Shown: one piece after another, positions 11,797-58,853 of the stretch | Layout: each line of letters opens with the position of its first letter | How positions within the stretch are numbered: position 1 is the stretch's first letter | From: Candidatus Spongiisociaceae bacterium | GTDB lineage: Bacteria > Actinomycetota > Acidimicrobiia > Spongiisociales > Spongiisociaceae | Length of the DNA stretch: 64,000 nt | Assembly (NCBI GenBank): GCA_965202675.1 | Contig: OZ241842.1 | Span: forward strand, 2,001,962 to 2,065,961 | Reading direction: 5' to 3' | Made by a program: the position numbers and the translations under genes | The notes under the pieces: model-generated | The model's input: the letters and a program-made list of their open reading frames with translations, nothing else | Databases searched by the model: none | What the model was told of the DNA's origin: nothing

Positions 11797-14700
11797 GTGC
11801 GGGTGCTCGACGCCGATAACCTCGAAGGCTGGCTCGAATCGAACTATGTCGTCCATGTTCGGGTATCCGAGCAGCTCGGCCGCCGCCCTTTGGAAGCGGA
11901 GTCGTTGGACAGGTGGTGGCCTCGGTGGGCGGACCAGACGGATCCGGTTTTGCCGCCGGCCCTGCTGTTGGCCGGCCGTCGGGCCGAGGCGGAGAAACTT
12001 TGCGCCGCGTTGACCGGGCCCCCGAAGGTCACAGGGGTTCGGGCCGCCTCGCGAGAAGAGGCCTTAGCTTTCGGGGCCGTTGCCCTGAGCACGGTCAAGG
12101 ACGACGTTTCTGCTTCGCCGGCGGCAGTGGTCGTCAAGTCTCTTGCGGTGTGGGATCGGTGTGCGGCGAGTCCCGGCCCGGCCATTCTGATCCCCCCGCG
12201 GGTCGAGGGCATCGACCTGCCGGCCGCGGTCCGGCAGGGTCATCCGGTTCTGATTCCTATGGGAGCAGGTGATGTCGACGGGGGAGGCGAAACGATCCTG
12301 CTTCCCCGGATCGGTCGGTCGGAGGCGCGGGAAGCACTGGAGGCGGCCGGAGCGTCTTCGGACAAGGCGGACGGATACGCGGTCGCGGCCCGCCGGAGCC
12401 TGCTGTCCCTGCGCCGAAGGATTTCCCTGCATCCCGCGACGGCCAGACCTGTGTGGGCGCAAGGCGGGGAAGCCGAGCTGTTGGCGGCCCTCGTATTGGT
12501 CGGGGCGTGGGAACAGAACAACGACTATGACCGCGCCGCAGTGGAGCGGATCGCTGATTGCGGCATCGAGGCGGTGGAGCGCCGGCTGCAGCGCTGGGAG
12601 AACACCGATGATCCTCCCTTCCGACGTTCGGGCGGCGCTTGGCGGTTGTCGTCTCCGGAGGATGCATGGCCGCTCCTTCGCAGCATGATTACCCGGGATT
12701 GCCTGAGGCGGTGGCGCGAGGCAGCGCTCGGAGTGCTGGGCGCTTCCGGTTCGGCGATCGAGCCGCCCGGGGGCCGTTTCTTCGCCCCCTTCCCAGGGGC
12801 GGCGCGGAAATGGTCTGCCGATCTGCGGAGAGGGTTGGCGCAGGGGGCGGTTTTCCTGGCGGCCTTCGATTTGCCGCGGCCCTTGGACGGTCTCAGAGGT
12901 TCCGAACACGCCGAGCGGATGGTGATGGAACTGTTGGATCAGGCAGGCGCCGACTCCGCCGGCGTGTTATGGAGGTCCTTGGCCGATGTACTGCCCTTGC
13001 TGGCAGAGGCGGCGCCGGACATCTTCCTCCGAGCTGTACATCGAGACGCGGCGGGCGGCGCCCCTTTGTTGGCCGGAATGTTCACCGACGCCTGCGGGTT
13101 CACAGGGTCCCCGCATACCGGCCTGCTCTGGGCTTTGGAGGCCTTGTGCTGGTCGGATAGATACCTGCCCTCTGCCCTGGACGCCCTGTTGCGGTTGGCC
13201 GAAATCGATCCGGGAGGCCGGACGGCCAACCGACCCCTGGACAGCGCGCGCCGGGTGCTCCTGCCTTGGCTGCACCAGACAAGCGCCTCGATCGAGCGCC
13301 GTATGGACGTGCTCGACGGTGTTGTGGAGCGTCATGAAAAAAAGGGATGGGAGCTGTTGCTGAGCCTGGTTGCTCTGCGGGGCAGTCATACGCACAATAT
13401 CAACAGACCGCGATTCAGAGATTGGATGACCGAGACGACGGGAATCTCCGGAGAAGAATCACGGCGGGCGGCAGAAGCGATTACTATCCGAGCGCTCAAA
13501 AAGGCTGGCGCCAATCCCTATCTTTGGGCGCAGCTGATCGAACACATACCCCTTCTCTGGGTTGGGCAGAGAGAACAGGTCATCGATGCTCTCGAAAGCT
13601 CAGGCATAGAGGCGCTCGACCATGGTGATCGCTTCGTCATTTGGAAGTCCCTGAACAAGTTGGTCGGGAACCGTCCGGATCGGAAGGCTCTACAGGATAG
13701 ATTGTCTGCCGCCGGCCTTGAGCGTTTGGAGAATATAAGGACCAAAATACGCCCCGATACGCCAGAAGTTCTGATCCAAGAGCATCACGAGTTGTTCGAT
13801 TGGCATCCAGAACGTTCGGATAGAGAGCGTCAGGATGCCGTCACAAGCATCTATCGATCAGCGGGAGTCGGGGGGCTGAGAGACCTGTCGAAGGAAGCTG
13901 TTCGTCCGGAATTGATCGGTGCATCGTCAGCTGACGCCATTATTGATCTGAGGGCAGAAGAGATGCTTCCCCTGTTGAACCAGGAAGGGCCGGATCGCGC
14001 GTTCGTTATGGGATGGATTACTCGAAGGGCAGAGCTCGACGGGGCGGAATGGATAGAAAGAACTGCGGATTCATTGGCAGATTTGTCTCATTCTGGCCAG
14101 GCTCTCTTCTTTCTTTCCTTGAGTCCTGATACTACTGTATGGAAAATCTTGGACCAGATGCCGCCCTCTGTCCAAGATCAATATTGGGAACGGGTCCATT
14201 CTTTTTATATACCACGGAGCGATTTCCTGATGTACTTGGATAAGCTCTTGGAGCACAGGCAACCTTGGTCTGCTGTAGAGTTCCTGTTTAGTCAACTAAG
14301 CAAGGATAAGAAGGAGGGCGGCAGCCTGGTTACAAGCGAGATGGTAGAGCGAACTATACTCAAACTGATAGAATCTGATACGAAGGAGCACCCCAGCGAG
14401 ATGTCTGCCTTTTGTCTGGGTAATTTGCTGGACTATTTGGATAAGCACGAGCCCGACTCGAGCAACCTGGCTGATTTCGAGTTAGCTCTATTTTCGGTAC
14501 TGCGCCGGTCCGACCGCCCGCCGACCGCGATATACCGGCGGCTCCAAGCAGAGCCGGCCGAATTCGTCAAACTGGTCTGCGGCGTCCATCGACTGCCTGA
14601 CGAAGAACCGGAAAATGATTCATTCGAAAGTACTGCTCCGCTTGATAATGCCTGGTCCATTCTGAAGGAATGGCGGACTTTGCCGGGCACCGACCGCGAT

Positions 14701-15126
14701 ACAGGCGATATCGAGCACGAGCGGCTGCGGGCGTGGGTGTTGGAGGCGCGCCGGCTGTTGCGGGAACGGGGCCGGAGCAGCATCGGAGACCAGTACATAG
14801 GAGAGCTCCTGTCCGGCGCCCCATCGGGAAGAGATGGGATATGGCCGGCCGAGCCGGTGAGGGATCTGCTGGAAGAGCTTGCGAGCGAAGGCGTGGAGCA
14901 GGGTGTTCTGGTCGGCCGCTTGAACAGCAGGGGGGTTACCGTCCGTGATCCGTTCGAGGGCGGCGCCCAAGAAAGGGACTCGGCCGGCCGGTACAGCGAT
15001 TGGGCGCAGCAGGTCGAGGCCAAGCGGCCGAGCACCGGCCGGGTGCTGCGGCAGTTGGCCGACTCCTATGAACGGGAAGCCCGCCGGCATGACGAAGAGG
15101 CCGAAGCCCTATCCGACCAGGATTGA
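11797..15126 (+). CDS. Large (1109 aa) hypothetical alpha-helical protein in a partly low-GC insert; no domain recognised
   Basis: The long ORF has sensible codon usage. GC drops to about 55% over roughly 13.3-14.7 kb. The frame stays open upstream of the GTG at 11797. ATG 11573 opens a second frame (146 aa) that overlaps it, so a frameshifted N-terminus is possible. Confidence 0.55.
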   Translation: MRVLDADNLEGWLESNYVVHVRVSEQLGRRPLEAESLDRWWPRWADQTDPVLPPALLLAGRRAEAEKLCAALTGPPKVTGVRAASREEALAFGAVALSTVKDDVSASPAAVVVKSLAVWDRCAASPGPAILIPPRVEGIDLPAAVRQGHPVLIPMGAGDVDGGGETILLPRIGRSEAREALEAAGASSDKADGYAVAARRSLLSLRRRISLHPATARPVWAQGGEAELLAALVLVGAWEQNNDYDRAAVERIADCGIEAVERRLQRWENTDDPPFRRSGGAWRLSSPEDAWPLLRSMITRDCLRRWREAALGVLGASGSAIEPPGGRFFAPFPGAARKWSADLRRGLAQGAVFLAAFDLPRPLDGLRGSEHAERMVMELLDQAGADSAGVLWRSLADVLPLLAEAAPDIFLRAVHRDAAGGAPLLAGMFTDACGFTGSPHTGLLWALEALCWSDRYLPSALDALLRLAEIDPGGRTANRPLDSARRVLLPWLHQTSASIERRMDVLDGVVERHEKKGWELLLSLVALRGSHTHNINRPRFRDWMTETTGISGEESRRAAEAITIRALKKAGANPYLWAQLIEHIPLLWVGQREQVIDALESSGIEALDHGDRFVIWKSLNKLVGNRPDRKALQDRLSAAGLERLENIRTKIRPDTPEVLIQEHHELFDWHPERSDRERQDAVTSIYRSAGVGGLRDLSKEAVRPELIGASSADAIIDLRAEEMLPLLNQEGPDRAFVMGWITRRAELDGAEWIERTADSLADLSHSGQALFFLSLSPDTTVWKILDQMPPSVQDQYWERVHSFYIPRSDFLMYLDKLLEHRQPWSAVEFLFSQLSKDKKEGGSLVTSEMVERTILKLIESDTKEHPSEMSAFCLGNLLDYLDKHEPDSSNLADFELALFSVLRRSDRPPTAIYRRLQAEPAEFVKLVCGVHRLPDEEPENDSFESTAPLDNAWSILKEWRTLPGTDRDTGDIEHERLRAWVLEARRLLRERGRSSIGDQYIGELLSGAPSGRDGIWPAEPVRDLLEELASEGVEQGVLVGRLNSRGVTVRDPFEGGAQERDSAGRYSDWAQQVEAKRPSTGRVLRQLADSYEREARRHDEEAEALSDQD

Positions 15127-28945: not shown

Positions 28946-30395
28946 GCTTACTCACCTCCGTAGGTTTCCAGTATAGTGATGGCGAAGTCTCGGGCAAATT
29001 CAACACCTTCCGCTAGGGAGAACACAGTGAGTGGCCAGTTATGCTCACTGTATGTCCACATTTCCTCATCGGTCACAGCAGGAGGCGCTTCCGAATAGTG
29101 AGCTACTCCGAATAAACCGGCCGCCCATTTGGTTTCCCATCCTAAGAAATCAATCATCAAAGAGACCGCTTCGCTGATGACATCCTGAGGAACTTGATAC
29201 AAGACTCGCGCCGACTGCAGGGACTCCTTTAGCCCGTTTTCGAACTCACGAGAGTTGCCGTCTGGAATCATGGCCTCGGTTATTGCTCGGGTAGCTAGTA
29301 ACCATGGATAATCGGGGTAAGAACCAAGCAATCGGCCAGCCGCGCCTCGCCACTCGCGTGCGGTGGTCTCGGTTTCTATTATGTTCCATTCTATTATCCA
29401 TTCAAGGAAACGAAGATACGATTCCTGCACTAATCGCAATAATACTTGGGTTGCGAATCCCTCCTGTAGATAATCCAATATTTGTCGCCGCATTTCCATG
29501 TTAGGATCGCTATTTTCGGCGGCGGAGTGTGTAGCCAACCACATTTCTCTCATCGACCGGCGGCGCGCTGTCTCGATTGTACGATATACAAACCTTATCA
29601 ATTCCTGTCCACATCTTTTGATAGATGACATCAGGTCACCCGGATGCCCTATTCTGTTCCTTATCGCTGTTATTTGTCCAGGTTGACTTCGTTCAATAAA
29701 GGCTTCCAAACTCTTAGTAACTGTTTCCATGCTTACACTGCGAACTGTGACTTCGAAGGTTTGTGATCCGCGCTCCTTTAGATAATCTTCTACTACTCCT
29801 AGAACGGCCAGTCTGTGAAGGGCCCGTTCACGAGCATCCTCGCCAGCTCTCGTTTGTCTATCTCTAAAAGGCAGGCTGATCTCTTGTCGTTCTGTCCTCG
29901 GGTTCAATTCGTATGCAACTCTCATGAGGACAGATATCTCATCTTCCATACCAGCGAAGGTATTAAGGTGAAACCATAGGGCAGTAGTAACATCATCTTT
30001 GGCTCTATTACTAATCTCTTCAATCCGTTGTCGTATGTCCTCCAGAGGAGTATCTTCCGACAAAAGATTCTGATTCCGATCCTTGTCGAATTCGCTAAGG
30101 ATCAGCATGCATTCTGCTCGATCTCCGTCGCGTCCTGCTCTGCCTACTTCCTGATAGTAAGCCTCTATGGATCTTGGAAACAGGTAGTGAATACTCCACC
30201 TAATGTTAGGTTTATCTATCCCCATGCCAAAAGCACTGGTGCACACTAGGGCTAATATTTCATTGTTCATGAAGCGATTAACACTATCGTCCTTTATTAT
30301 CTCGAATTCATGGTGGGAGATGGTTCTTGGATTGCTACCCGCGTACACACCTACGCTAGGACAGATTATCGCAACGGCATCTTTAGCATTAATTA

Positions 30396-31209
30396 GGGCG
30401 TGTTAACACTATTTCGTTTTGATATGGTATCATGCGGGGATGGAGATTACAGAAGCTCAGTACGAGCGTATCAAGTCGTATTTACCGACGCAGCGCGGTA
30501 ATGTCCGCGTGTCGAATCTGGATGTGCTCAACGCTTTTTTGTATGTGTTGGAGCACGGATGTAAGTGGCGGGGGTTGCCTGACCGGTTTGGTAATTGGCA
30601 TACCATCTACACGCGGATGAACCGCTGGTCGAAGAATGGCGTGCTGGACAGGGTGTTTAGGGGTTTGCAGGATGAGGGGATCATCCGGATGAATCTGGAG
30701 GTTGTTTCTTTGGACAGCACGATCGTCAGGGTTCATCCCGATGGGATGGGCGCTCTGAAAAAAAGGGGCCCCAGGCGGTCGGCCGGTCCCGGGGGGGTTG
30801 GACGACCAAGATTCATATGGTTGCCGCGGATGCTCGAACGGCGGTGATGTTTTCTCTTTCTGCGGGTCAGGATCATGACGCTGCGCATGGGCGGAGGCTG
30901 TTGGAGCGGATCGGCGTGCAACAGGATCCGTTGTTCCTGGTGATGGACCGGGCGTATGAGGGGGACGAGACGCGGCAGTTGGCTTTGGATCTGGGGTATA
31001 CGCCGGTGGTTCCTCCTACAGTCCGGCGGCGGAACCCTTGGGTCTATGACCAGGAGGTTTACAAGCGGCGCAACGAGGTCGAGCGGTTGTTCCGACGGCT
31101 GAAGGAGTATCGTCGTGTCTTCTCCCGTTACGATAAACTCGACGTGGTTTACCTGGGGTTCATCACCTTTGCGCTGATAACAGAAACCCTACGTAGTGTT
31201 AACAGGCCC
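30396..31209 (+). mobile_element. IS5-family (IS427/IS1031-group) insertion sequence, 814 bp, with imperfect terminal inverted repeats and a TA target duplication
   Basis: IRL is GGGCGTGTTAACACTAT and IRR is ...TAGTGTTAACAGGCCC. TA flanks both ends. GC is about 50%. It encodes an orfA-orfB transposase. Confidence 0.8.
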
Positions 31210-31212
31210 TAG
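30440..31212 (+). CDS. IS5-family transposase (orfA-orfB, programmed -1 frameshift at A7 run ~30758-30764)
   Basis: OrfA reads MEITEAQYERIKSYLP...VSNLDVLNAFLYVLEHGCKWRGLP...WHTIYTRMNRWSKNGVLD. OrfB (30817-31212) reads ...DHDAAHGRRLLE...LVMDRAYEGDETRQLALDLGYTPVVPP...NEVERLFRRLKEYRRV, the DDE_Tnp_1 C-terminus. The two ORFs overlap around the GAAAAAAAG slippery site. Confidence 0.75.
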
Positions 31213-33715
31213 TCCTGGTAATCCTCCAGGGCGTTGATTAACAGTAGGAACGAATACCAAGCCGGAGAAGGTCTGCTCTCCTCTATTAGGCATAAAATAC
31301 CTTGCTTGATTGACATCAAACAGGGCGGGCAAGCGCCTCAAGCAACCTTGGAGAGTAACTGGGTGATCAGGGGAAGTACATCTTACATGATAGTTGAGTT
31401 CTGGTCGATCAAAGGATTCTGGTTGTACGATAGAATTATCATTGTGTTCCATAATACCCAACTGAAATAGTACATCGCTTAGTACTGCTCGAGATGCTGT
31501 TCCAGTTAAGGCAAGCAGTGGGGGAGGTTGTCCGCTTTGATCTTTAGATAATTTACGAATAATGTTGCCCAAATTGAGGTATGCATATCTGAAGTCATGC
31601 CCCCATTCAGAAACGCAATGTGCCTCGTCTACTACGACTAGGTTGACAAGAGTAGCGTTTGCCAACCTAGCTAAAGCCTTTCTAAATTTCTTTGTCTGAA
31701 TACGCTCGGGAGCGACAAACACATAGTAAGGCTCGGCATTTGCTATATGTTCCAAAACTACATCTTGTTCTCTAGTACGACTTGTGATTTCTTGTACACG
31801 GTCGATGCCGTGGCTTCGTAGGCCTTTAACTTGATCATTAATCAAGGCTACCAACGGGTCGATCACTAAGGTTCGTCCGGGCAGGCATAACCCGGCTAGC
31901 TGATAGATCAAGCTCTTGCCCGCCCCCGTCGGGAGAAGCACGGCACAATCCCTCATGGACATGACCTCGACTATGGCTTCATACTGACCATCACGAAAAC
32001 CCTCTTTGGCAAACACAGCGCGGAGTAATACCCTCAGAGGGTCCCTGCCCTCGTCTCCTTCGATATGAACGGTTGCTCGATTGTTGTCGCCTTCTAGGCG
32101 ATCGGACATCAGAACGGGAACACCTGTGGATCGGATAACCACTGTTGGTGTGCCATCGCGATCAGGGAGTGGCTGGCACGAAGTACGATCACACTGCAAC
32201 AGGATACGGGCGCGAGGGTTAGACACCGATTCTTCGGAGGCATCTTGGCGCTCGTATCGGCCTTCCGGGGTGCGGTGGAAGAGTACTCTATCTTCACTGT
32301 CCTCGAATAACACTCGTCCTGGCACAACGGAGCGGGCATCCCACAGGCAACAGAGGGCGTAAAGAACTTCCAGATATGGTACTATCAGTTCGATGGCCAT
32401 ATGCGTAGGATCTTCGACTTCTACTATCCAGGAATCCCCGCTTAGGAATCCGCGGCGGATGGCTTCGCATAGTCCCAAAACCAAGCGATGAACCTGGATA
32501 GAACCCCAGACCAATAATTTATCTTCATCCGAGGGATTTGTGGCTTGACTGACTGTCGCCTCTATAGCGTTGGTAACGGCTTCAAGTTGAGAGCCGTGTC
32601 CCATTCTGATTTCACTTGTAGACACGCGGATAGTTTCTATGCCGATATTTCTAAGCAATTGGTCCCGCTCTTGGTCAGTTAGTTGTTGAGTTTCGTGTTG
32701 CGTACCGTCTATTTCAATTACAAATGGACAGCTACCCGGTGGTGCCCAGAGAAAATCGCAACGGCGGTTCCCGCCTGCTCCATGGCCTGCTGCCTGCAGG
32801 AGGCCGTCTAATGAAGCTTGAGGTATCAGCCAACGAGCAACTCGTGGATGGTGCTCTGCCATCCATTCCATCAGTAGCCGTTCCTCGTCCGATTCAGCCA
32901 GAGATGGTTCGATTTCAACGTGGTAGCCACCGGGTATCACGGTGAGGTCGCGTAAGCTCACTGAATAAGAATCGTGCAGATTGAATGACACATCTCCCGG
33001 TTGCGAGCTAGGTCGGATACGGTCACCTAGACCGACAGACTCAATCAGTATCCGCTCAGAGTCGGGGTGTAGGGGCGGTGTCAATCCTCGGCGGAGAAGT
33101 TTGCCCATTACGTCCAGCACTCTTTGAGTGTTTCTATCAGACTCAAGTTCGTGGAGAGGGGATGTGCTTGCTATCCAGCAGTTGGAGAGAGAGTCCATGT
33201 CCTCAACCTTGACAGACCTAAGAGATGCTCCTACAGTGGCATATTCGACCTGCCAGCCAGCATTTTCGAAGCCAAAGGTACCATCAGACCAGTGAACACG
33301 TTGTTTTCTGAGAACATCCTGCCCGAATACCTTTGCTGGGTTCGGATGATTGGTGATCATCGTGTCGGGCTGAGGTGTATCCGGAGGGTTTATTATTGGC
33401 GGGTTAGCCCTTTTTTCCTCGTTGCTATTGAAAGTTGTGGTTCCTCGGCAACTGGGGAATTGCAGGCATCCCCAGAAACGGTTTCCGGACCTTGCCCCCT
33501 GCTTCGCGGTGCGAAGGGTCATATCACTCCCACATCTTGGGCATCTGGGGCGGTTTCCACTCGTGCTGTTCCTTCGCCACGTTGACCCCCCGCGCTTGCG
33601 GTGGTCTGTCTCGGAGTCTAACCCCGACGAGGGGTCGCGGTTTCTGGACACACAGGCGTTTGGTGATCGACAAAACTGTCAGGCGGCGATCCCGATGAAG
33701 GGTTATGCACCTCGC

Positions 33716-48301: not shown

Positions 48302-50379
48302 CCGGCGCGGCGGAGCGGTCGGTGCAGGTGGTGTTCACCCCCTCGGGAAGGCGGGGGCGGGTGAGGGCCGGAACCGCCGTCCTGGACGCGGCCCGCAGCC
48401 TGGGGGTGGACATCGACTCGGTGTGCGGAGGCCGGGGAATATGCGGGCGCTGCCAGATAATGCTGGGCGCGGCGGCGGGAGCGCCCTCCGCCGACGGCGC
48501 CCTTTCACCCCCCGGCCAGACGGAGATGGGCTATCGGAGCCGGCGCCGCCCCCTGCGGGAAGGCCACCGGCTCTCATGCGCCGCCCGGCTGCAGGGCGAC
48601 GCGGTTATCGACGTTCCCCCCTACAGCGCCGTGCACCGCCAAGTGGTGCGAAAACGGCCTGAGGCGGTGGACATTCCCGTGGATCCGGTGGTGCGCCTGC
48701 ACTACGTGGAGGTGGAACCCCCCGACATGCACAAGCAGGCCTCCGATCTGGCCCGGGTGCTCCAGGCGCTGGAAGGGCAGTGGGGGATCTCCGCAGAGGA
48801 GGTGGACCATCACGTGCTGGTCGGTCTGCAGGACGCCCTGCGGGAAGGCGGATGGAAGATAACGCTGGCGGTCCACGACGGGTCGGCGGTGACCGGGGTG
48901 TGGCCGGGCTTCTACGACGGTTCGGTCGGGGTGGCCATAGATGTGGGGTCGACCACCGTGGCCGGGCATCTCTGCGACCTTTCCACGGGTGAGGTGCTGG
49001 CCTCCACCGGGATGATGAACCCCCAGATCCGGTTCGGCGAGGACCTGATGAGCCGGGTTTCCTACGCGATGATGAACGAGGGGGGCGCGGAGGAGCTGAC
49101 CGGCGCGATACGGGAAGCCCTGGACCGGCTGGTGGGAGAGCTGGCGGAAGCGGCCGGGTCGGAGCGCGGCGCGGTGCTGGAGATCGCCTTGGTCGGGAAC
49201 CCCGTCATGCACCATCTGGTGCTGGGGATCGATCCGCGCCGTCTGGGGGTGGCGCCCTTCGCGTTGGCCACCGACGGGGCGGTCCGCATGGAGGCGTCGT
49301 CCGTAGGAATCGAGGCCCACCCCGGCGCCCGCCTCTACGTGCTTCCCTGCGTGGCGGGTCATGTGGGCGCCGACGCGGCCGGCGCCATGCTGTCGGAAGG
49401 CCCCCACCGCGGCCGGGACATCCAGCTGCTGGTGGACGTGGGCACCAACGCCGAGATTGTGTTGGGCAGCGCCGGGCGCCTGCTGGCCGCTTCCAGCCCC
49501 ACCGGTCCGGCCTTCGAAGGGGCCGAGATCGGTTCCGGGCAACGGGCCGCCCCCGGAGCGATCGAGCGGGTGCGCATCGACCGCCGCACCCTGGAACCCC
49601 GCTTCAGGGTGATCGGGGTGGATATGTGGTCGGACGAGGAGGGCTTCGAGGAGGCGGCCGCCGGTGCGGGGGTGACCGGGATATGCGGCTCGGGGATCAT
49701 CGAGGCGGTGGCCGAGCTGGCCCTGTCGGGGGTGGTGTCGGCGGACGGTCTGATCCTGGACACCGGACGGAGCAGGCGGGTGGCCGCGGACGGCCGCACC
49801 GCCTCCTACCTGCTGTACGAGGGGGGCTTGTCCGGCGGCGGGGGCGCCCGGATCGTCATCAGCCAGAACGACGTGAGGGCGATCCAGCTGGCCAAGGCGG
49901 CGCTCTACGCGGGGGTGCGGCTGCTCATGGATCGGCTGGGGGCGGCGGCGGTAGACGAAATCAGGCTGGCCGGCGCCTTCGGCAGCCATATCGATCCCAT
50001 ATATGCAATGGTTCTGGGCATGATCCCCGACTGCGACCCGGACAGGGTGTCGGCGGCGGGCAACGCGGCCGGCGCCGGAGCGATGATGGCCTTGCTGAGC
50101 GGCGCCGCCCGCCGGGAGGTCGAGGAGCTGGTGCGGCGGGTGGAGAAGATCGAGACGGCGGTGGCGTCCGATTTCCAGCAACATTTCGTGGAGGCGATGG
50201 CCATTCCCCATGCCGCCGCCCGCTTCGAGCAGCTGTCCGGCCGGGTGGACCTGTCGGGCATCGCGGCGGGGGACCCGTCTGCCGCCCGCCGCGGCCGCCG
50301 GTCGGGCCGGGCCGGTTCCGGGCGGGGCGGCGCCGGGGGCCGCCGTCCGGCGGCGGCCGCCCGAGAGGCGGCGGTGTGA
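48298..50379 (+). CDS. RamA-like corrinoid reductive activase (N-terminal 2Fe-2S ferredoxin + ASKHA ATPase domain)
   Basis: The N-terminal cysteines CGGRGICGRCQ are followed by a large ASKHA domain (GIAIDVGSTTVAG...LVDVGTNAEIV). Confidence 0.8.
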   Translation: MTGAAERSVQVVFTPSGRRGRVRAGTAVLDAARSLGVDIDSVCGGRGICGRCQIMLGAAAGAPSADGALSPPGQTEMGYRSRRRPLREGHRLSCAARLQGDAVIDVPPYSAVHRQVVRKRPEAVDIPVDPVVRLHYVEVEPPDMHKQASDLARVLQALEGQWGISAEEVDHHVLVGLQDALREGGWKITLAVHDGSAVTGVWPGFYDGSVGVAIDVGSTTVAGHLCDLSTGEVLASTGMMNPQIRFGEDLMSRVSYAMMNEGGAEELTGAIREALDRLVGELAEAAGSERGAVLEIALVGNPVMHHLVLGIDPRRLGVAPFALATDGAVRMEASSVGIEAHPGARLYVLPCVAGHVGADAAGAMLSEGPHRGRDIQLLVDVGTNAEIVLGSAGRLLAASSPTGPAFEGAEIGSGQRAAPGAIERVRIDRRTLEPRFRVIGVDMWSDEEGFEEAAAGAGVTGICGSGIIEAVAELALSGVVSADGLILDTGRSRRVAADGRTASYLLYEGGLSGGGGARIVISQNDVRAIQLAKAALYAGVRLLMDRLGAAAVDEIRLAGAFGSHIDPIYAMVLGMIPDCDPDRVSAAGNAAGAGAMMALLSGAARREVEELVRRVEKIETAVASDFQQHFVEAMAIPHAAARFEQLSGRVDLSGIAAGDPSAARRGRRSGRAGSGRGGAGGRRPAAAAREAAV

Positions 50380-51914
50380 ACGCCCGGCGGGGCCGCAGAG
50401 CCGGCGGCCGGGCGGCGCGCCAGGCGCAGCGGACGGCCCGCGTGATCGAGCAGCAGCCCTTCCTGGTCCGCAGGATCAGCCCCGCAGAGGTGCTGTCGGA
50501 GGAGGGCGTCGAGATCATCGAGCACAACGCCGACACCCTGCTCGAGGAGGCGGGCGTCGAGATCATGGACTATCCGGAGGCGCTGTCCATCTACGCCGGG
50601 GCGGGCGCCGAGGTGGACGGAACCAGGGTTCGTTTTCCCAGGGGCATGTGCCGGGAGCTCATAACCGCTTCGGCGCCGGAGGTGTTCACCCACCACGCCC
50701 GCAACCCGGAACGGTCGGTGTCGATCGGAGACCCGTACACGGTTTTCGCCCCCGCCTACGGACCGCCCTTCGTGCGGGACCTGGAAGGGGGCCGCCGCTA
50801 CGCCACCCTCGGGGACTTCGAGAACTTCGCCAAGCTGACCCACATGTCCCCGGCGCTCCACCACGGCGGAGGGACCCTGTGCGAGCCGGTGGACCGCCCG
50901 GTCAACAAGCGCCACTACGACATGATCTACTCCCATGTCGTCTACCACGACAAGCCGTTCATGTCGTCCGTTACCCAGCCCGAACGAGCCCAGGACTCGG
51001 TGGATATGGCCAAGATCGTGTTCGGCGGGGACTTCGTGCAGAACAACACGGTCCTGATCGGCCTCTGCAACGCCAACTCCCCGATGACCTGGGACCTCGC
51101 CATGCTGGGATCGGCCAAGGTGCTGGCCGAGAACAACCAGTGCGCCCTGATAACCCCGTTCATCGTCGCCGGGGCCATGTCGCCGGTTACGGTGGCGGCT
51201 ACCGCAACCCAGACCCTGGCCGAGGCGATGGCGGGTATGGCCTTCACCCAGATCGTCCGGCCCGGCGCTCCGGTCATATTCGGCTCGTTCGCCGCTTCGA
51301 TGTCGATGCAGAGCGGCGCCCCCACCTTCGGAACCCCGGAGACGGCCTTGGTGCTGGGATCGGTCAAACAGCTGGCGGTGCGGCTGGGGGTGCCGTTCCG
51401 ATCGGGCGGCGCCCTGACCGCCTCCAAGATTCCAGACGCCCAGGCGGCCTATGAAAGCATTATGACCCTTCTGCCCGCGGTCGGGGCCGGCGTCAACTTC
51501 GTTCTGCACTCCGCCGGATGGCTCGAGGGCGGCCTCACGATGGGTTACGAGAAGTTCGTTCTCGACGCAGATCAGGCCTCAATGATGAACCGGCTGACGG
51601 GCGGGGTGGATCTGAGCGAGAACGGCCTGGCGTTGGAGGCCTTGCTGACCAACGGCCCCGGCGGGCATTTCCTGGGCGCCGAACACACCATGGAGAACTT
51701 CGAACAGGCATTCTGGGTGTCGGAGTTGGCCGATGCGGACAGCTTCGAGCAGTGGGAGATCGACGGCGCCCTTGATTCCATCGACCGGGCCAACCGGAAA
51801 TGGAAGCAGATGCTGGCCGAATACCAGCCGCCGCCGCTCGATCAAGCGGTGCACCAGGAGCTGACCGAGTGGATCGCCGCCCGCAAGGCCTCGTTCCCCG
51901 ACTCCGATTACTGA
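50376..51914 (+). CDS. Non-pyrrolysine MttB-superfamily methyltransferase (quaternary amine:corrinoid methyltransferase, MtgB/MtcB-like)
   Basis: This 512-aa TIM-barrel MttB-family protein has no in-frame TAG, so it belongs to the non-Pyl clade. It starts at GTG overlapping the ramA stop. Confidence 0.8.
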   Translation: MNARRGRRAGGRAARQAQRTARVIEQQPFLVRRISPAEVLSEEGVEIIEHNADTLLEEAGVEIMDYPEALSIYAGAGAEVDGTRVRFPRGMCRELITASAPEVFTHHARNPERSVSIGDPYTVFAPAYGPPFVRDLEGGRRYATLGDFENFAKLTHMSPALHHGGGTLCEPVDRPVNKRHYDMIYSHVVYHDKPFMSSVTQPERAQDSVDMAKIVFGGDFVQNNTVLIGLCNANSPMTWDLAMLGSAKVLAENNQCALITPFIVAGAMSPVTVAATATQTLAEAMAGMAFTQIVRPGAPVIFGSFAASMSMQSGAPTFGTPETALVLGSVKQLAVRLGVPFRSGGALTASKIPDAQAAYESIMTLLPAVGAGVNFVLHSAGWLEGGLTMGYEKFVLDADQASMMNRLTGGVDLSENGLALEALLTNGPGGHFLGAEHTMENFEQAFWVSELADADSFEQWEIDGALDSIDRANRKWKQMLAEYQPPPLDQAVHQELTEWIAARKASFPDSDY

Positions 51915-52029
51915 TGGGCTGCTCGAAGGCGTTCGTGCGGTTGCGGCGGAGGGCCTGCTCCTTCTTCCCGGCCCGGATCGGGGGAACCGTCCGCCTCCGC
52001 CCTCTCGGGCCGCCCCTCTAGGGCAGGGC

Positions 52030-52884
52030 GTGGCAGGCCGCCGGCGCCGCCTCGACGGATTCGCCAGAGCCGCCCTCCGGCGGGCTCTGGAAACCCCCAA
52101 ATTCGAGGTGCTTCCCCTCAAAGGAGTGCTGGACCAGGCGGGGATCCTGCCGGAGGGGGCGCAGGTGTCGGTTACCGCCTCTCCTACCAAGACCATGGAA
52201 GACACCATGAACCTGGCCGCCGACCTGCGGCAGCAGGGGTTCGACGTGATACCGCACCTGTCGGCCCGCATGACCCACGACCGGTCGCATCTGGCCTCGC
52301 TCCTGCGGCGGATGGAGGACCTGGAGATATCCCGGGTTTTCGTGGTGGGGGGAGACGCTTCCCAGCGGGGGGATTTCCGGGATTCCTTCTCCTTGCTGCT
52401 GGCCATGGAGGAGATGGGGCACCACCTGACCGAGCTGGGGGTTACGGCCTACCCGGAGGGGCATTCTCTGATATCGGACGACCTGCTGCGGCAGGATCTG
52501 CACAACAAGCAGCCCTACGCCGCCTATATGACCACCCAGATGTGCTTCGACGGGAGGGCCATCGCCGATTTCTTGGCCGGATGCCGGGCCGACGGCGTTT
52601 CCCTGCCGGCGCGGATTGGGATTCCGGGGGTGGGCGACCGGCTGAAGTTGATGAGAATATCTACCCGGATCGGGGTGGGGCAGTCGGTGCGGTTCCTCAC
52701 CAAGCACCGGGGGATGCTGGGGAGGTTCATCCGTCCGGGCGGCTACACACCCGAGGACCTGTTGAGGAGCCTCGCCCCGGTCTTCGCCGCCCCGGAGGCC
52801 GCCGTCATCGGGGTGCATATCTACACTTTCAACCAGTGCGAGACCACCGAGCGGTGGCGGCAGGAGTACCTGGAGAGCCTGTAG
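52030..52884 (+). CDS. metF: 5,10-methylenetetrahydrofolate reductase
   Basis: The MetF fold is present (SVTASP...VIPHLSAR...VFVVGGD...). Length is 284 aa. Confidence 0.8.
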   Translation: MAGRRRRLDGFARAALRRALETPKFEVLPLKGVLDQAGILPEGAQVSVTASPTKTMEDTMNLAADLRQQGFDVIPHLSARMTHDRSHLASLLRRMEDLEISRVFVVGGDASQRGDFRDSFSLLLAMEEMGHHLTELGVTAYPEGHSLISDDLLRQDLHNKQPYAAYMTTQMCFDGRAIADFLAGCRADGVSLPARIGIPGVGDRLKLMRISTRIGVGQSVRFLTKHRGMLGRFIRPGGYTPEDLLRSLAPVFAAPEAAVIGVHIYTFNQCETTERWRQEYLESL

Positions 52885-52936
52885 AGGGCCCCGCCCCGCG
52901 GCCGCAAAAGGGTTGCGGGCCCCAGGACGTCCGGCC

Positions 52937-54691
52937 ATGACCAGCCCCTCATCCCCGGAAGGCCCGGCCGCCCGGTTCGACGACCGGCGCGGCGGCGGCG
53001 CCTTGGAGCTGCGCGATCCCTACCGGGTGCTTGTTGCCTTCCGGTCCGACCAGGCGGCGGATGTGATCGCCGAGGCCGAGGCCGAGGCCCGTTCGGGCGG
53101 CTGGGTGGCCGGGTGCGTCGCCTACGAGGCGGCCCCCGCCTTCGACCGCGCCCTGACGGTCCGCCCGCCCGGCTCCGACCTGCCCCTCGCCTGGTTCGCG
53201 GCCTTCCGGACGGCGGCGCCCGAACCCGCCCGGCGGGGCGGGCCGTACCGTACGGCTCCTTGGCGGCCCGAGATATCCGAGGCCGGGTACATGGAGGACG
53301 CGGCCGCCGTACAGGAACTGATCGCGGCGGGCGACACCTACCAGGCCAACTACACGTTTCGCCTGCGGGGAAGGGTGGAGGGCGACCTGCGGTCCGTCTA
53401 CGCCGATCTGCTCGACGCCCAGGGCGGCGGCCACCACGCCTACCTGGAGACGGGAAACCGCACGGTGGTATCCGCCTCGCCCGAGCTGTTCTTCCGCTGG
53501 GACGGCAGGCGGATAGAGACCAGGCCCATGAAGGGGACCGCCGCCCGCGGACGCTGGGAGCAGGAGGACCGGGCCAACCGGGAGCGGCTGCTGTCGTCCG
53601 GGAAGGACCGGGCCGAGAACGTGATGATCGTCGATCTGTTGCGCAACGACCTGGGAAAGGCCGCCCGGTTCGGAACGGTCGGAGTTGAGCGCCTGTTCGA
53701 GATCGAACGGTTCGAGACGGTCTGGCAGATGACCTCGACGGTGGCCGCCGAAACCCGGCCCGGAGTGGGCCTGTTCGACATCTTCGCCGCCATGTTTCCG
53801 TGCGGTTCGGTCACCGGCGCCCCGAAGGCGAGGACCATGGAGATCATCTCCGATCTGGAGGCTTCCCCGCGGGGCGTCTACTGCGGGGCGATCGGGTTGC
53901 TCGCCCCGCCGGGGTCGGGGCGCCCCCGGGCCGAGTTCTCGGTGGCGATCAGAACCCTGGTCGTCGACGGGCGGGACGGCTCGGCCGAGTACGGGGTGGG
54001 CGGCGGGGTGGTGCACGAGTCCGTGGCGGCCGAGGAATACCGGGAGGCGATGGTCAAGGCAAGGGTGCTGCATCGCCGCAGGAAACCCTTGACGCTGCTG
54101 GAGACGATGCGCTGGGACCCGGAAACGGGGGTATGGCTGCTCGACCGTCATATGGACCGCCTCCGCTCCTCCGCCCGCTACCTGGGCGTCGAGCTTCCCG
54201 AAGCGGAGATCCTCGCCCTGATCGAGGGCGTCGGGGGCGTCCGCCCGTTGCGGATCCGGTTGCTGGTGCCGGAGGCCGGGCCGCCGCGCCTCGAAGCGGC
54301 GCCGCTGGCCGTCCTGCCCCCGGCGGCGGGCCTCGCCCTGGACGACCGTCCGGTCGACCGCTCCGACTTCCTCCGTTACCACAAGACCACCCGCCGGGGC
54401 CCCTACGAGGCGGCGGCGGCCCGGCATCCGGAGGCCGACGACGTGGTGCTGGTCAACGACCTCGGCGAGGTGGTGGAGACCACCGTCGCCAACCTGGCCG
54501 TGCGGCTCGGGGAGGAGTGGTTGACCCCGCCCCTGGAAGCCGGATGCCTTCCCGGCGTCTACCGGGGAGAGCTTCTCGACCGGGGCCTTCTGATCGAACA
54601 GCCGGTGCCGATAGACGCCCTTCTAGCAGCCGACGAAATCGCAGTGCTCAACTCGGTTCAGGGCCGCCGGTCCGCCAAGCTGCTCGGTTAG
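52937..54691 (+). CDS. pabB: Aminodeoxychorismate synthase component I fused to aminodeoxychorismate lyase (PabB-PabC)
   Basis: Chorismate-binding domain motifs are present (PELFF...RPMKGTAARG...NVMIVDLLRNDL...FPCGSVTGAPK). The C-terminal roughly 200 aa form a class-IV aminotransferase-like PabC domain. Confidence 0.8.
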   Translation: MTSPSSPEGPAARFDDRRGGGALELRDPYRVLVAFRSDQAADVIAEAEAEARSGGWVAGCVAYEAAPAFDRALTVRPPGSDLPLAWFAAFRTAAPEPARRGGPYRTAPWRPEISEAGYMEDAAAVQELIAAGDTYQANYTFRLRGRVEGDLRSVYADLLDAQGGGHHAYLETGNRTVVSASPELFFRWDGRRIETRPMKGTAARGRWEQEDRANRERLLSSGKDRAENVMIVDLLRNDLGKAARFGTVGVERLFEIERFETVWQMTSTVAAETRPGVGLFDIFAAMFPCGSVTGAPKARTMEIISDLEASPRGVYCGAIGLLAPPGSGRPRAEFSVAIRTLVVDGRDGSAEYGVGGGVVHESVAAEEYREAMVKARVLHRRRKPLTLLETMRWDPETGVWLLDRHMDRLRSSARYLGVELPEAEILALIEGVGGVRPLRIRLLVPEAGPPRLEAAPLAVLPPAAGLALDDRPVDRSDFLRYHKTTRRGPYEAAAARHPEADDVVLVNDLGEVVETTVANLAVRLGEEWLTPPLEAGCLPGVYRGELLDRGLLIEQPVPIDALLAADEIAVLNSVQGRRSAKLLG

Positions 54692-54837
54692 CTGTGCTTC
54701 CCATGGACGTGGTTGACAGTTTTGGCGGCGGGGTGGCAGGCCGCCCCCGGACGGTCGACCTTCGACCCCGGTCCCCTTGATCACGGGAGGAGCCCTCCGG
54801 GCCGTTGTAGGAGCATATCGTCAGGTGTACGCAACAC

Positions 54838-55608
54838 GTGGAAGGGGAGAGCGGGTCCCTTGCGGAACCGGGCTCTCCCCGGGTAGAATTGTTTGCTCTG
54901 CAACAGTATAGCAGGAAAATGACCGCATTGGAAGCACCGCATCTGGTCATCGGCCGACTGCGCGACTACTTCGCGCGCAGAACCAACTGGCAACGCCGAC
55001 TCTGGAATCCAGGAACCGTCACTGTACTACAGGAGACTTTGGAAGCGGTTCAGCTACTTGAGGGTGAACAAGTCGCTCTAGATGGGTAGCTCCAAGGTTG
55101 CCATGACTAGAAAGGGTATATAATCATAGTTTAGATTGATTACAAAGCATATGATAACCAGGATGATGACGAATGAGCCGCTTAGCTCGGCTCCTCGGCG
55201 ATTGGGCTGTGCCTGTAATCGGCGTGTTTCCGCGGTTGGTCGGCGGAAACAAAACCCTTATCCCTTGGAACTACCCATCTAGGGGCCGTTGAAGCCTTGG
55301 CGAGAACAGCGGAGCGGCGAGCTGGACCGGATTCTGGGATTGGTACTACGGCTAAACGAAAGGCTATCACCGAGACCCTCCGTAAGGTAAGCAAAAGCCA
55401 GATGGTCAGGTATCAGTTTGAGTATCTCCTCCGGGGGGTTGGTGATGGTTACCTGCAACGTTGGTCGGAGAAACTGAGGGACCAGCCAGATAAGATCAAG
55501 ACCGAAGAGGCTTCACGATTAGTGGCGGGGCACCTACTCGGTCTAGGTTTCAGCCCCGATAAGCTCCATCGGTGGTCAACTTGGCTATATAGGCAAAGAC
55601 AGCCCTAA
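54838..55608 (+). pseudogene. Small ORF (~185 aa, unknown function) interrupted in frame by a MITE-like element
   Basis: ORF 54838-55089 stops at the TAG inside the left TIR. ORF 55297-55608 resumes in the same frame. Removing 55078-55278 rejoins them as ...EGEQVAL/GAVEALARTAE.... Confidence 0.45.
55078..55282. mobile_element. MITE-like 205-bp nonautonomous element with 20-bp terminal inverted repeats (CTAGATGGGTAG[C/T]TCCAAGG) and CTAG/TA target duplication
   Basis: The ends are near-perfect inverted repeats (1 mismatch). The interior is AT-rich and non-coding, and the insertion is in frame in the host ORF. Confidence 0.55.
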
Positions 55609-55963
55609 ACGCTAGCAGATCTATTCGAGGAAGCCGAAGCCTTGGCGCGTTCAAGGAAGGCCGAGTGGGTGGTGTTTATCCCGTTCCGAGCCCTTGGGCG
55701 GCATGGCCAAACAATGCCAGACGAGTGGCTTGACCTAGGATAGGCGAGCCGATGGTTGTTAGATCATGTTGGAAGTGTCAAAATACGGTCACTGATCTGG
55801 TTGCTCTTTATGGTATTGGCTGAAACCAACTCTCTCTTCATGCCTTCAAGTACGGGCAGATGCGGTTGCCAATGGGTGGGATGGCTCGTTGCCGAGGGTA
55901 GCCTTGCCCCCGCTGGTGGTTTCATCCTTGAGAAACCTTACGGTTTTAAGGTCCGGTCCCGGT

Positions 55964-57274
55964 TCAACCAAGGGGCAGGGGCGGATGGTCGGGTTGGGGC
56001 AGTCCGGGGCCCCATAGGCCGGCGATCGGGGCGGCTTCTACGCCGCGGTCGAGCTCGTACCGGTGCGGCCCGGTGTGGAATAGCACTCCGCCGTGGAAGC
56101 GGTCTCCGGCTACTTTGTCCCGGAACCAGATCAGGTGGCGGGCATCCGACCGGGTGGGGGCGCGGCCGGCCTTGAACTCGAAGGCGAAGAGCTTCATTCC
56201 GCGCTCGGCCACCAGGTCGATCTCGCGGTCTCCGTTGGCGGTGCGGAGGTGGTACAGCCGCACCCTTCCGTCCGCTTCGGCCTCCACCCGGAGCTGGGCC
56301 GTTATGAAGGTGTCGAGCATCCGGCCCCTCAGATCGGCATCGGAATAGACATCGTCGACGGTCAGATTCAAGGCGGCGCAGGCCAGGCCGGGGTCGGTGA
56401 ACTGGCGCTTGACCCGGTCGACCAGCAGGCGTTTCTGCCGGTTGCCGGTCCAGGGAGGGAGCTCGTCGACAATCCCGAGCGTTGTCAAGGCGTAGAGGTA
56501 GCCGTTGGCGGTGCGTTGGTCGATCCCGACCCGCCCGTGGATGGTCGAGTGCGGTGCCACCCCCGCGGTGTTGAGGGCGTAGGATTCCATGTAGGAGCGG
56601 AAGAGCCGGGCGTCCTTGGGCCGGCCGGTGTCGGCGGCCAGCGAGCGCAGGTCGCGATTGACTATGGCCTCCGAATAGGAACGGAGCCATTGCGCCCGCT
56701 CGCGGCCACCCGGTATTGCGATGGCCTCGGGGAAACCGCTCGCCAGAGCTGTCTCGAGGTACTCGCGCAGTCCGGGCGGGTCGGCGGGTACGCTGAACCG
56801 CCGGTCTCGGTCGTTCCACCGCTCGAACAAGGACGGGGCCGCCGCCGACCCGAAGCGTTCCCGCCCCGTGATGCCCCAGAGGCGTTGACGGACGAGCCTG
56901 CCCGTGCCCGGCCACATATCGGTCAGCAGGTCGTTGCGGGCCGAACCCGTCACGATGAACCTTCCGGGGGCCGGATGGTCGTCGACCTTTCGCTTCACCG
57001 CCCTCAGGACATCGGGGACCAGCTGCCATTCGTCGATCAACAAAGGGGGTTGCCCGGTTGCCGCCGCTATGGGGTCGGCCCGGCACAGGTCCTGATCGTC
57101 GGGGTCGTCGAGGCGCAGCTGCGACGCCGAGAACTCGAGGCCGGTGCGGGTCTTTCCGGCAGCTCGCGGGCCGGTGATGAGCATCCCCGGGAAGTTGTCC
57201 AGGCCCGTTCGGAGGGCGCGGTCGATTATGCGCGGGCGGTACGGCCTCGCACCGGGCGCGTCGTCACCCGGCAT
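55964..57274 (-). CDS. AAA_14/DUF4143-family ATPase (paralog of 37498-39546)
   Basis: It has a Walker A motif (ITGPRAAGKTRT) and a DUF4143-like C-terminal part. Length is 436 aa. Confidence 0.7.
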   Translation of the reverse strand: MPGDDAPGARPYRPRIIDRALRTGLDNFPGMLITGPRAAGKTRTGLEFSASQLRLDDPDDQDLCRADPIAAATGQPPLLIDEWQLVPDVLRAVKRKVDDHPAPGRFIVTGSARNDLLTDMWPGTGRLVRQRLWGITGRERFGSAAAPSLFERWNDRDRRFSVPADPPGLREYLETALASGFPEAIAIPGGRERAQWLRSYSEAIVNRDLRSLAADTGRPKDARLFRSYMESYALNTAGVAPHSTIHGRVGIDQRTANGYLYALTTLGIVDELPPWTGNRQKRLLVDRVKRQFTDPGLACAALNLTVDDVYSDADLRGRMLDTFITAQLRVEAEADGRVRLYHLRTANGDREIDLVAERGMKLFAFEFKAGRAPTRSDARHLIWFRDKVAGDRFHGGVLFHTGPHRYELDRGVEAAPIAGLWGPGLPQPDHPPLPLG

Positions 57275-57299: not shown

Positions 57300-57560
57300 C
57301 TTCCTGGCCTCATGGTTCATGTATCTCCCGCATGGCGGTTCGTGCGGCTCTGGCATGGTAGTTTATGCTTCTCCCGCATAGTAGTTTATGCATCTGCGGC
57401 ATGGTGGTTCATGTATCTCTCGCATGGCGGTTCGTGCGGCTCTGGCATGGTAGTTTATGCTTCTCCCGCATAGTAGTTTATGCATCTGCGGCATGGTGGT
57501 TCATGTATCTCTCGCATGGCGGTTCGTGCGGCTCTGGCATGGTAGTTTATGCTTCTCCCG
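57300..57560. repeat. Tandem array: ~11 abutting copies of a degenerate 23-bp unit (CATGGNGGTTYRTGYNTCTSNSG), organised as ~2.8 copies of a 92-bp higher-order repeat
   Basis: The 92-bp block recurs at about 57365, 57457 and partly at 57549. It lies between the divergent ATPase (-) and FAH (+) genes. The units abut with no spacers. Confidence 0.8.
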
Positions 57561-57649
57561 CACGTGTGGCCCCGCCCGCCGCCTCCTTCTTTCGACCGGT
57601 GGCCGTTCCTATACAATCACCGCCCGGACGAGCAGGAAGGAAATCAAAG

Positions 57650-58477
57650 ATGAGGATAGGCAGGTACAGGGCCGGGGCGGAGGAGGGTTGGGGTTTCGTG
57701 TCGGCTGACGCAATCCGCCCGGCGGTCGGCGGACCGGACCTGACGGAGGTGCTGGGAGACCCCGCCGCCCTTGCCGGTCTGGCCGGGCAGGCCGGCGCCG
57801 AGATACCGCTCGGCGGAGTCGATCTGCTGGCGCCGCTTCCCAATCCGCCCCAGTTCCTGGGCATCGGCCTCAACTACCGGGGTCATGCCGCCGAGTCGGG
57901 CGCCCCGGTGCCGGAATCGCCGGTGAGCTTCGCGTTCTTCAACTCCTCGATTACCGATCCGGGCGCCGCCGTTCGGTTGCCTCCTTTTACCGACCAGGTG
58001 GACTGGGAGGTCGAGCTGGGGGTGGTGATCGGACGAGAGGCCTGTTGCGTGCCGGTGGAAGAGGCGCTTGATTACGTGGCGGGGTATGTGATCGTGAACG
58101 ACCTTTCGGCGCGGGACATCCAGTTCGCCGAGGCGCAATGGACCCGCGCCAAGTCGTTCGACACCTTCAAGCCGATGGGTCCCTGGATTGTCTCCGCCGA
58201 CGAGCTGGGCGCAGCCGACGACCTCGATGTGAAGCTGTGGGTGAACGACGAGCTGAAGCAGTCGGGCAACACTTCCGATCTGGTCTTTGATGTACCCACC
58301 CTGGTCTCCCACATGTCGCAGCACCTGACGCTGGGGGCGGGGGCGGTGATCTCGACCGGCACCCCGGCCGGAGTGGGAATGGGCCGCAAACCCCCCGAGT
58401 ACCTGGCGCCGGGAGACGTAATGACCCTGGAAATCGAGGGCATCGGCAGGATCACCAACCCAGTAGAGTCCGCCTAG
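57650..58477 (+). CDS. Fumarylacetoacetate hydrolase (FAH)-family protein
   Basis: The start is taken at MRIGRY (residue 96 of ORF 57365-58477), which has an AGGAAGGAAA RBS. FAH-fold motifs are present (GLNYRGHAAE, DWEVELGVVIG, TGTPAGVG). The stop codon lies inside the repeat that begins at 58474. Confidence 0.8.
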   Translation: MRIGRYRAGAEEGWGFVSADAIRPAVGGPDLTEVLGDPAALAGLAGQAGAEIPLGGVDLLAPLPNPPQFLGIGLNYRGHAAESGAPVPESPVSFAFFNSSITDPGAAVRLPPFTDQVDWEVELGVVIGREACCVPVEEALDYVAGYVIVNDLSARDIQFAEAQWTRAKSFDTFKPMGPWIVSADELGAADDLDVKLWVNDELKQSGNTSDLVFDVPTLVSHMSQHLTLGAGAVISTGTPAGVGMGRKPPEYLAPGDVMTLEIEGIGRITNPVESA

Positions 58478-58540
58478 ATGGGTAGTTCCAAGGGATAAGG
58501 GTTTTGTTTCCGCCGACCAACCGCAGAAACACCCAGAACC
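58474..58540. repeat. Third copy of the MITE terminal sequence (52 bp identical to the reverse complement of 55232-55283, ~65 bp similar), inverted relative to the 55232-55283 copy
   Basis: CCTAGATGGGTAGTTCCAAGGGATAAGGGTTTTGTTTCCGCCGACCAACCGC matches the MITE right-end interior. No partner TIR is seen downstream. Confidence 0.5.
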
Positions 58541-58607: not shown

Positions 58608-58853
58608 ATGGATGGGATATATGCTGTTGTGATGGGAGACAGAGGCCGGATCGTGGTGCCCGCCGCGGTGCGCGAACGCGCCGGGCTCTCTGCAGGCACT
58701 CCGTTGGTGGTGGTCGAATCTTCCGAAGGCCTGATTCTGTTGACGCGGGAGCAGCTGCGGGCGCGTATTCGGGATGAGCTGAGCAGCGCTGATCTGGTGG
58801 GGCAACTTCTCGCGGATCGACGGCGGGCGTCCGTACGGGAGGATGCCGGATGA
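58608..58853 (+). CDS. AbrB/MazE/SpoVT-family DNA-binding protein (VapB-like antitoxin), no cognate toxin adjacent
   Basis: VMGDRGRIVVPAAVRERAGLSAGTPLVVV is a swapped-hairpin SpoVT_AbrB motif. The next gene is a dehydrogenase, not a toxin. Confidence 0.55.
   Translation: MDGIYAVVMGDRGRIVVPAAVRERAGLSAGTPLVVVESSEGLILLTREQLRARIRDELSSADLVGQLLADRRRASVREDAG

Follow-up and report, generated by a model that had tools for sequence, protein, structure and literature searches.

The window (the whole stretch of DNA analysed, 64 kb in length) contains a low-GC patch made up of a foreign-looking gene remnant (55% GC) and a short element inserted into it. A stump of a second copy of the element is found further on, at the end of a fumarylacetoacetate-hydrolase-family gene (57650-58477). 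The element is a MITE running from an A-end to a B-end, and the features concerned, in window coordinates, are the following.

54919 to 55080, plus strand: first part of the host gene remnant, ahead of the insertion, with an ATG at 54919
55078 to 55282, plus strand: complete MITE, 205 bp with a CTAG at each end, A-end to B-end
55078 to 55097, plus strand: left terminal inverted repeat, the A-end, CTAGATGGGTAGCTCCAAGG, from an inverted-repeat search of the window
55078 to 55081, no strand: left copy of the target CTAG, which is single in the empty allele
55098 to 55127, plus strand: inward promoter-like site, TTGCCA, 18-nt spacer, AATCAT (9/12), a consensus match only
55226 to 55250, plus strand: subterminal hairpin inside the B-end, GTTTCCGC-GGTTGGTCG-GCGGAAAC, also present in the stump at 58474-58532
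55263 to 55282, minus strand: right terminal inverted repeat, the B-end, CTAGATGGGTAGTTCCAAGG on the minus strand
55279 to 55282, no strand: right copy of the target CTAG, single in the empty allele
55282 to 55790, plus strand: second part of the host gene remnant, in frame with the first
58474 to 58532, plus strand: stump of a second MITE copy, 59 bp of the B-end, 58/59 identical to 55224-55282 on the opposite strand

The two 20-nt arms match at 19 of 20 positions (95% complementary) and are 165 nt apart, the right arm reading CCTTGGAACTACCCATCTAG on the plus strand. The original prediction, made from the letters alone, had described 20-bp repeats with one mismatch around a 205-bp non-coding element, a CTAG target, a host ORF that halts at a TAG in the left repeat and resumes in frame, and a patch of about 50% GC at 54.7-55.9 kb. 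All of this stands. The arms fall at 55078-55097 and 55263-55282; empty alleles (in contigs L027 and L041, below) have one CTAG and filled alleles have two; the TAG that closes ORF 54838..55089 is at 55087-55089, within the left repeat, and ORF 55297..55608 is in the frame of that ORF; the element has stops in all six frames (2 to 6 per frame), its longest ORFs being of 39-48 aa; and GC content is 53.7% over 54800-55950, with 200-nt windows at 47-59%. The element itself has 48.3% GC, against 66.9% for the window. At 199 bp (205 bp with both CTAGs) and with terminal inverted repeats, it is smaller than the approximately 300 bp taken as a criterion for MITEs. When up to three mismatches are allowed, the terminal 20-mer occurs three times in the window, versus 0.00 expected from 100 dinucleotide shuffles; the third copy, at 58474-58493, had not been noted before.

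A search with the rejoined ORF retrieved a protein, P0001, that is 100% identical to it over the whole query, junction included. P0001 is encoded on L027, a 5.6-kb ENA metagenome contig aligning with the window at 98.9% identity over 50370-55081 and 99.1% over 55278-56084; the two blocks overlap by 5 nt on L027. In both, a MTHFR gene and then a PabB-like gene (Chorismate_bind and Aminotran_4 domains) are found upstream. A relative with the uninterrupted allele, which had been proposed as a check, thus exists at 99% identity, and removal of 201 bp rejoins the ORF as predicted, giving ...EGEQVALGAVEALARTAE..., exactly as L027 encodes it. At the insertion site (site 1), L027 reads ACAAGTCGCT-CTAG-GGGCCGTTGAAG (GTCGCT-CTAG-GGGCCG), without the 201 bp, and the window reads ...GCT-CTAG-ATGGG...CCCAT-CTAG-GGGCC.... 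The difference between them is therefore exactly 201 bp put in at one CTAG, with TA or CTAG duplicated. This net gain can be read as a 199-bp element plus TA or a 197-bp element plus a duplicated CTAG; because CTAG is palindromic, the sequence is compatible with a 2-bp or a 4-bp duplication alike. A gain in the window strain would be a simpler reading of this polymorphism than a precise loss in L027, and the insertion is recent.

The host had been taken for a small ORF. That it is interrupted is correct, but it is no intact small gene: it is the remnant of a gene of about 530 codons, with two nonsense changes relative to L027, at 55606 (CAA>TAA, C>T) and 55741 (GAG>TAG, G>T). Homologues of the rejoined ORF are 117-267 aa long, many of them fragment-like, and have no Pfam domain. 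A HMMER scan started from P0007 collected 282 representatives at E <= 0.001, most of 520-540 aa. Residues 25-250 of P0001 align with residues 4-234 of one 537-aa protein, P0022, at 46% identity, with no homology beyond. The rest of the gene is kept in L041 (4686-6140), which encodes 293 aa, 55% identical to residues 245-535 of P0022. The host remnant thus represents the first 235 or so codons of an uncharacterised family of about 530 aa, for which we found no match in Pfam, NCBIfam or PADLOC. About 894 bp of L041 are absent from the window and L027 alike, with a junction near 55787-55792; the gene was thus truncated before the element came. Fragmentation is frequent among relatives in the host family: an IS5-like element interrupts one of them (L034), and another adjoins GmrSD and Fic genes (L037).

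CTAG is scarce in the window (29 sites versus 196 expected from base composition), yet eight of the 29 sites fall within 54.6-55.8 kb, which partly explains why this patch was hit. Other low-GC stretches are present at 29-33.5 kb (29000-33500; 48-53% GC), with 13 of the 29 CTAG sites, and at 13-15 kb (13000-15000; 56-59% GC).

Further copies of the same element were identified at two other sites. Likeness to the element ends after the 59 nt of the stump at 58474-58532, whose outer end coincides with the TAG that terminates the fumarylacetoacetate-hydrolase-family gene (site 2). Relatives at this site were found as contigs encoding a MazE-like neighbour protein identical to that of the window. 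L029 matches the window at about 97% identity and carries, exactly on the same stop codon, a complete 205-bp copy that is 97.6% identical to the window element. This copy is followed by about 786 bp with genes for a Phd/YefM antitoxin and a PIN-domain toxin, then by sequence corresponding to the window from 58533 onward. The antitoxin and toxin pair (L029 350-1046) is missing from the window at junction 58532/58533, and the window therefore carries a deletion of about 930 bp, in which 146 bp of the MITE copy and the toxin-antitoxin pair were lost. The syntenic contig L041 (about 95% identical) has the empty allele, GAGTCCGC-CTAG-ATCCTGCGCACACG (GCCTAG then ATCCTGCGCACACG), and its flank ATCCTGCGCACACG is the one that follows the element in L029. 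Site 2 thus exists in three states: empty in L041, full in L029 and truncated in the window.

The surroundings of site 2 contain other features. Directly upstream of the hydrolase gene, 57313-57562 is an array of 23-bp tandem units that form a higher-order repeat of 92 nt, present in 2.7 copies with 99% matches; the copy number apparently differs in L041. On the other side, 58608-58853 encodes an 81-aa MazE/AbrB-like antitoxin with no obvious toxin partner downstream; it is followed by a gene resembling NAD-binding 3-hydroxyisobutyrate dehydrogenases.

The third site is on a 3.16-Mb contig (L040 3944-4149), where a copy 92.8% identical to the window element has CTAG on both sides. This copy was the sole match to peptides translated from the element in six frames, a query intended for copies hidden in miscalled ORFs. 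The exact subtype of the window is thus known at three insertion sites (the window site, the L029 site and L040), its copies being 93-98% identical across the element. A JGI metagenome scan with the internal 20-mer AAGGGTTTTGTTTCCGCCGA gave no further copy of this subtype; one apparent match, L028, proved to be an AT-rich chance match with no similarity to the window. Viral contigs held no copy of the terminal repeat, and plasmid records no similarity to the element.

The terminal repeat itself is shared more widely, as a search for other copies, also proposed originally, made clear: sites 2 and 3 were joined by 16 complete short elements. With one genome per species scanned, the 20-mer CTAGATGGGTAGYTCCAAGG gave 26 matches, all in Acidimicrobiia assemblies and 16 of them on a single Candidatus Spongiisociaceae chromosome. 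Complete end pairs were present at 18 of the 26 loci, corresponding to the 16 short elements and two insertion sequences. The short elements span 184-590 bp, mostly 198-200 bp, and 13 are on one 3.19-Mb chromosome. All but four of the 18 paired loci are flanked by CTA...TAG, and no other flank duplication was seen. The eight 199-bp copies of the Spongiisociaceae chromosome have a mean pairwise identity of 92%.

Three MITE subfamilies can be distinguished (L002-L023 of OZ251535.1; L010; and the window element, 55081-55279). Their interiors are unrelated, while the modal length is 199 bp in each and the A and B ends are constant across subfamilies. The window type and the commonest type have no more in common than about 35 nt of the A-end and about 23 nt of the B-end, the likeness of the A-end to the A-ends of other subfamilies reaching to about nucleotide 35 (GGTTRCCC..GAC); interior homology between these two types was considered and rejected (local alignment z = 1.3). 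Two family members meet directly at L003 1343-1378, end against end, with one CTAG in common, as expected if one had entered the CTAG flanking the other.

Could the element, though mobile, also be a small structured RNA gene or a regulatory cassette, with a TATAAT-driven transcript of about 120 nt running to the GTTTCCGC/GCGGAAAC hairpin? We think this very improbable. A perfect TATAAT is present at 55119-55124, the element has one promoter-like match, it folds better than shuffled sequences (z = -5.9 and -8.0 for the two strands), and the hairpin is kept in the stump. However, the strong fold comes mostly from the terminal repeats pairing together, as in any MITE, and one promoter-like match is no more than shuffles yield (0.6 +/- 0.8). 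The element scan gave no terminator-like site, and Rfam returned nothing in 54000-56500 except one sub-threshold chance match. In the L040 copy, TATAAT becomes GATAAT and the hairpin shows a C-T mismatch without a compensating change; the hairpin is thus probably not functional, and we rejected it as a conserved structure. Subfamilies with the same ends also have unrelated interiors, and we found nothing in support of a function for the element interior.

An autonomous parent with the same ends, a further check suggested at the outset, was found in related genomes. The same 20-nt ends and CTAG flanks delimit three insertion sequences of 1030-1090 bp (L012 5800-6829, L017 2713-3802 and L018 4533-5568), each with one ORF of 302-313 aa. 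Their products score 163.1, 180.0 and 181.7 bits with the NCBIfam model NF033520, 'IS982 family transposase' (cutoff 130); of its 243 positions, the matches take in 1-241 or 1-242. Pfam assigns the products DDE_Tnp_1. More than 7,900 database proteins match the parent transposase at E <= 1e-40, one of which NCBI names 'IS982 family transposase'. The full-length matches to the family model and to DDE_Tnp_1 point, indirectly, to a putatively intact catalytic DDE triad in these parents. The parent of the element is thus IS982-type. The B-end of the window element coincides with the ends of the three insertion sequences over 20-21 nt. Beyond these roughly 21 nt nothing else is shared, and since the subterminal sequences differ, the window element did not arise from the sequenced parents by simple loss of an internal segment. 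The A and B ends common to the MITE subfamilies are likewise unlike the subterminal sequences of the insertion sequences.

The parents given as examples in the original prediction, IS630/Tc1 or IS5, fare less well, the transposase being of IS982 type by its model (163-182 bits, cutoff 130). IS630/Tc1-mariner and IS5 are the families classically tied to a TA or CTAG target: IS630 uses CTAG and duplicates TA, and IS5 produces a 4-bp YTAR duplication. Origin from, or mobilisation by, a transposase of either family would agree with the strict CTAG target and the apparent TA or CTAG duplication, and these families and their MITEs indeed resemble our elements in having a TA-centred palindrome as target (CTAG) and a 2- or 4-bp duplication. 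The parent transposases also give weak, sub-threshold matches to IS5 models. However, the best of these reach 47-56 bits against a cutoff of 110 (IS5 cutoffs range over 110-140), and the NCBIfam scan placed the parent transposases far under the IS5, IS4, IS1634 and IS1182 cutoffs. In the ORFs enclosed by the ends, Pfam and NCBIfam detected no IS630-type domain, only IS982, DDE_Tnp_1 and related families. Every coding element between these repeats has an IS982-type transposase above the curated cutoff, and the transposase linked to these ends belongs to neither rival family. An IS630 or IS5 source accordingly seems to us very improbable.

The in-frame position of the insertion was also put forward originally, but it is without functional meaning. 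The frame is kept because the element length, 199 bp, plus 2 makes 201, and this is of no consequence because all six frames have stops; that the insertion is in frame is coincidental. A coding insert that the host gene tolerates in frame, in the manner of the Rickettsia palindromic elements, with selection for a length that is a multiple of three, would be in line with the 201 bp added (3 x 67) and with a commonest length, in three subfamilies, of 199 bp plus 2. Against this, the window element has its 2 to 6 stops per frame, the TAG at 55087-55089 is in the frame actually used, copies in the other subfamilies nearly all have stops in nearly all frames, and the host gene was truncated beforehand. 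We rejected read-through and in-frame coding on account of the stops in every frame, and regard such a coding insert as extremely unlikely. A chance inverted repeat in a low-GC patch, devoid of mobility, can be dismissed outright given 0.00 expected occurrences, filled and empty alleles at two sites and 26 genomic matches that all belong to one bacterial class.

The best explanation, in which we have high confidence, is that the element is a MITE that an IS982-family insertion sequence with the same 20-nt ends mobilises in trans through its DDE transposase. Copies at three sites, an autonomous parent sharing the ends and an empty allele in a 99%-identical relative all agree with a MITE. As no transposase of this type is present in the 64-kb window, the case for trans-mobilisation in this organism is drawn from related genomes. 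The IS982-type transposase would recognise the terminal 20-35 nt and bind both terminal repeats, from whose ends conserved sequence extends some 25-35 nt inward, would excise or copy the element, and would integrate it at the tetranucleotide CTAG, staggered cuts leading to duplication of the central TA or of the whole CTAG. In the window strain, one copy would have entered a CTAG inside a gene already deprived of its 3' half, an insertion that should cost the cell nothing, since that half had already been lost. The 201 bp keep the frame by accident and bring a TAG 10 nt in. The second copy, beside the stop codon of the hydrolase gene, was later clipped by an unrelated deletion.

IS982-derived MITEs are already known: MITECca01 and MITECca02 derive from ISCca4, an IS982-family element of Cardinium (PMC9769881). 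Like the elements described here, they are short and non-coding (about 240 bp there, 199 bp here), bounded by IS982 inverted repeats and present in several copies (PMC9769881). The host is in both cases a host-associated bacterium rich in mobile elements (in ours, probably a sponge-associated member of the Acidimicrobiia), and trans-mobilisation by intact parents is presumed in both. The Cardinium elements differ in belonging to a Bacteroidota endosymbiont and in having no sequence similarity to ours. They also keep the subterminal sequence of their parent, whereas the window element has only about 21 nt in common with the sequenced parents. ISCca4 is listed with 6-bp direct repeats (PMC7335449), and the target here is always CTAG.

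In the IS982 family at large, insertion sequences of about 1 kb encode a single transposase (about 290 aa; ORF of about 290-300 aa), have ends of the form 5'-AC(N)6T(N)5TT, and produce direct repeats whose length varies from 0 to 8 bp, no fixed target being reported (PMC7335449). The actinobacterial members ISCef2 and ISCef3 (1017 and 989 bp, with 301-aa transposases, an ORF length given as about 301-302 aa, and repeats of about 20-26 bp at the ends; PMC7335449) are close in design to the parents described here, with their 1030-1090 bp, single 302-313-aa ORF, repeats of about 20 nt and scores above the IS982 model cutoff. Our parents depart from the family in starting with (CTA)GATGGGTAG instead of AC and in their invariable CTAG target; there is no register of their ends, CTAGATGGGTAGTTCCAAGG, in which positions 1-2 are AC, position 9 is T and positions 15-16 are TT. 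An AC start is found in 57 of the 69 listed members (PMC7335449), and as the other 12 do without it, this departure suggests that the elements form a divergent subgroup, not that they lie outside the family.

A narrow literature search on the host lineage returned no description of these elements. We propose, tentatively and at slightly less than even odds in our own estimation, that they constitute an undescribed IS982 subgroup (non-AC ends with an absolute, IS5/IS630-like requirement for CTAG) together with a swarm of MITE subfamilies in sponge-associated Acidimicrobiia, in which asymmetric A and B ends are kept, length is mostly 199 bp and interiors are unrelated. If so, a constraint on the length or geometry of the transposition complex would have to be combined with repeated replacement of the interior. 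The MITE reading itself involves no new mechanism and adds a further example to the IS982-derived MITEs already described. It does offer a clean natural case of MITE transposition, in which near-identical strains of an uncultured symbiont lineage provide two sites with filled, empty and decayed alleles, and it suggests that an IS982-type transposon system has recently been active in these genomes, with insertions gathering in gene remnants that were already decaying. In practice, CTAGATGGGTAGYTCCAAGG with its CTAG target provides a defined repeat for masking or tracking in Acidimicrobiia assemblies.

Elsewhere in the window, at 51414-51513 on the plus strand, Rfam reports a candidate PYLIS_3 (the pyrrolysine insertion element of mttB) inside a long ORF, with 51.5 bits against a gathering threshold of 38.
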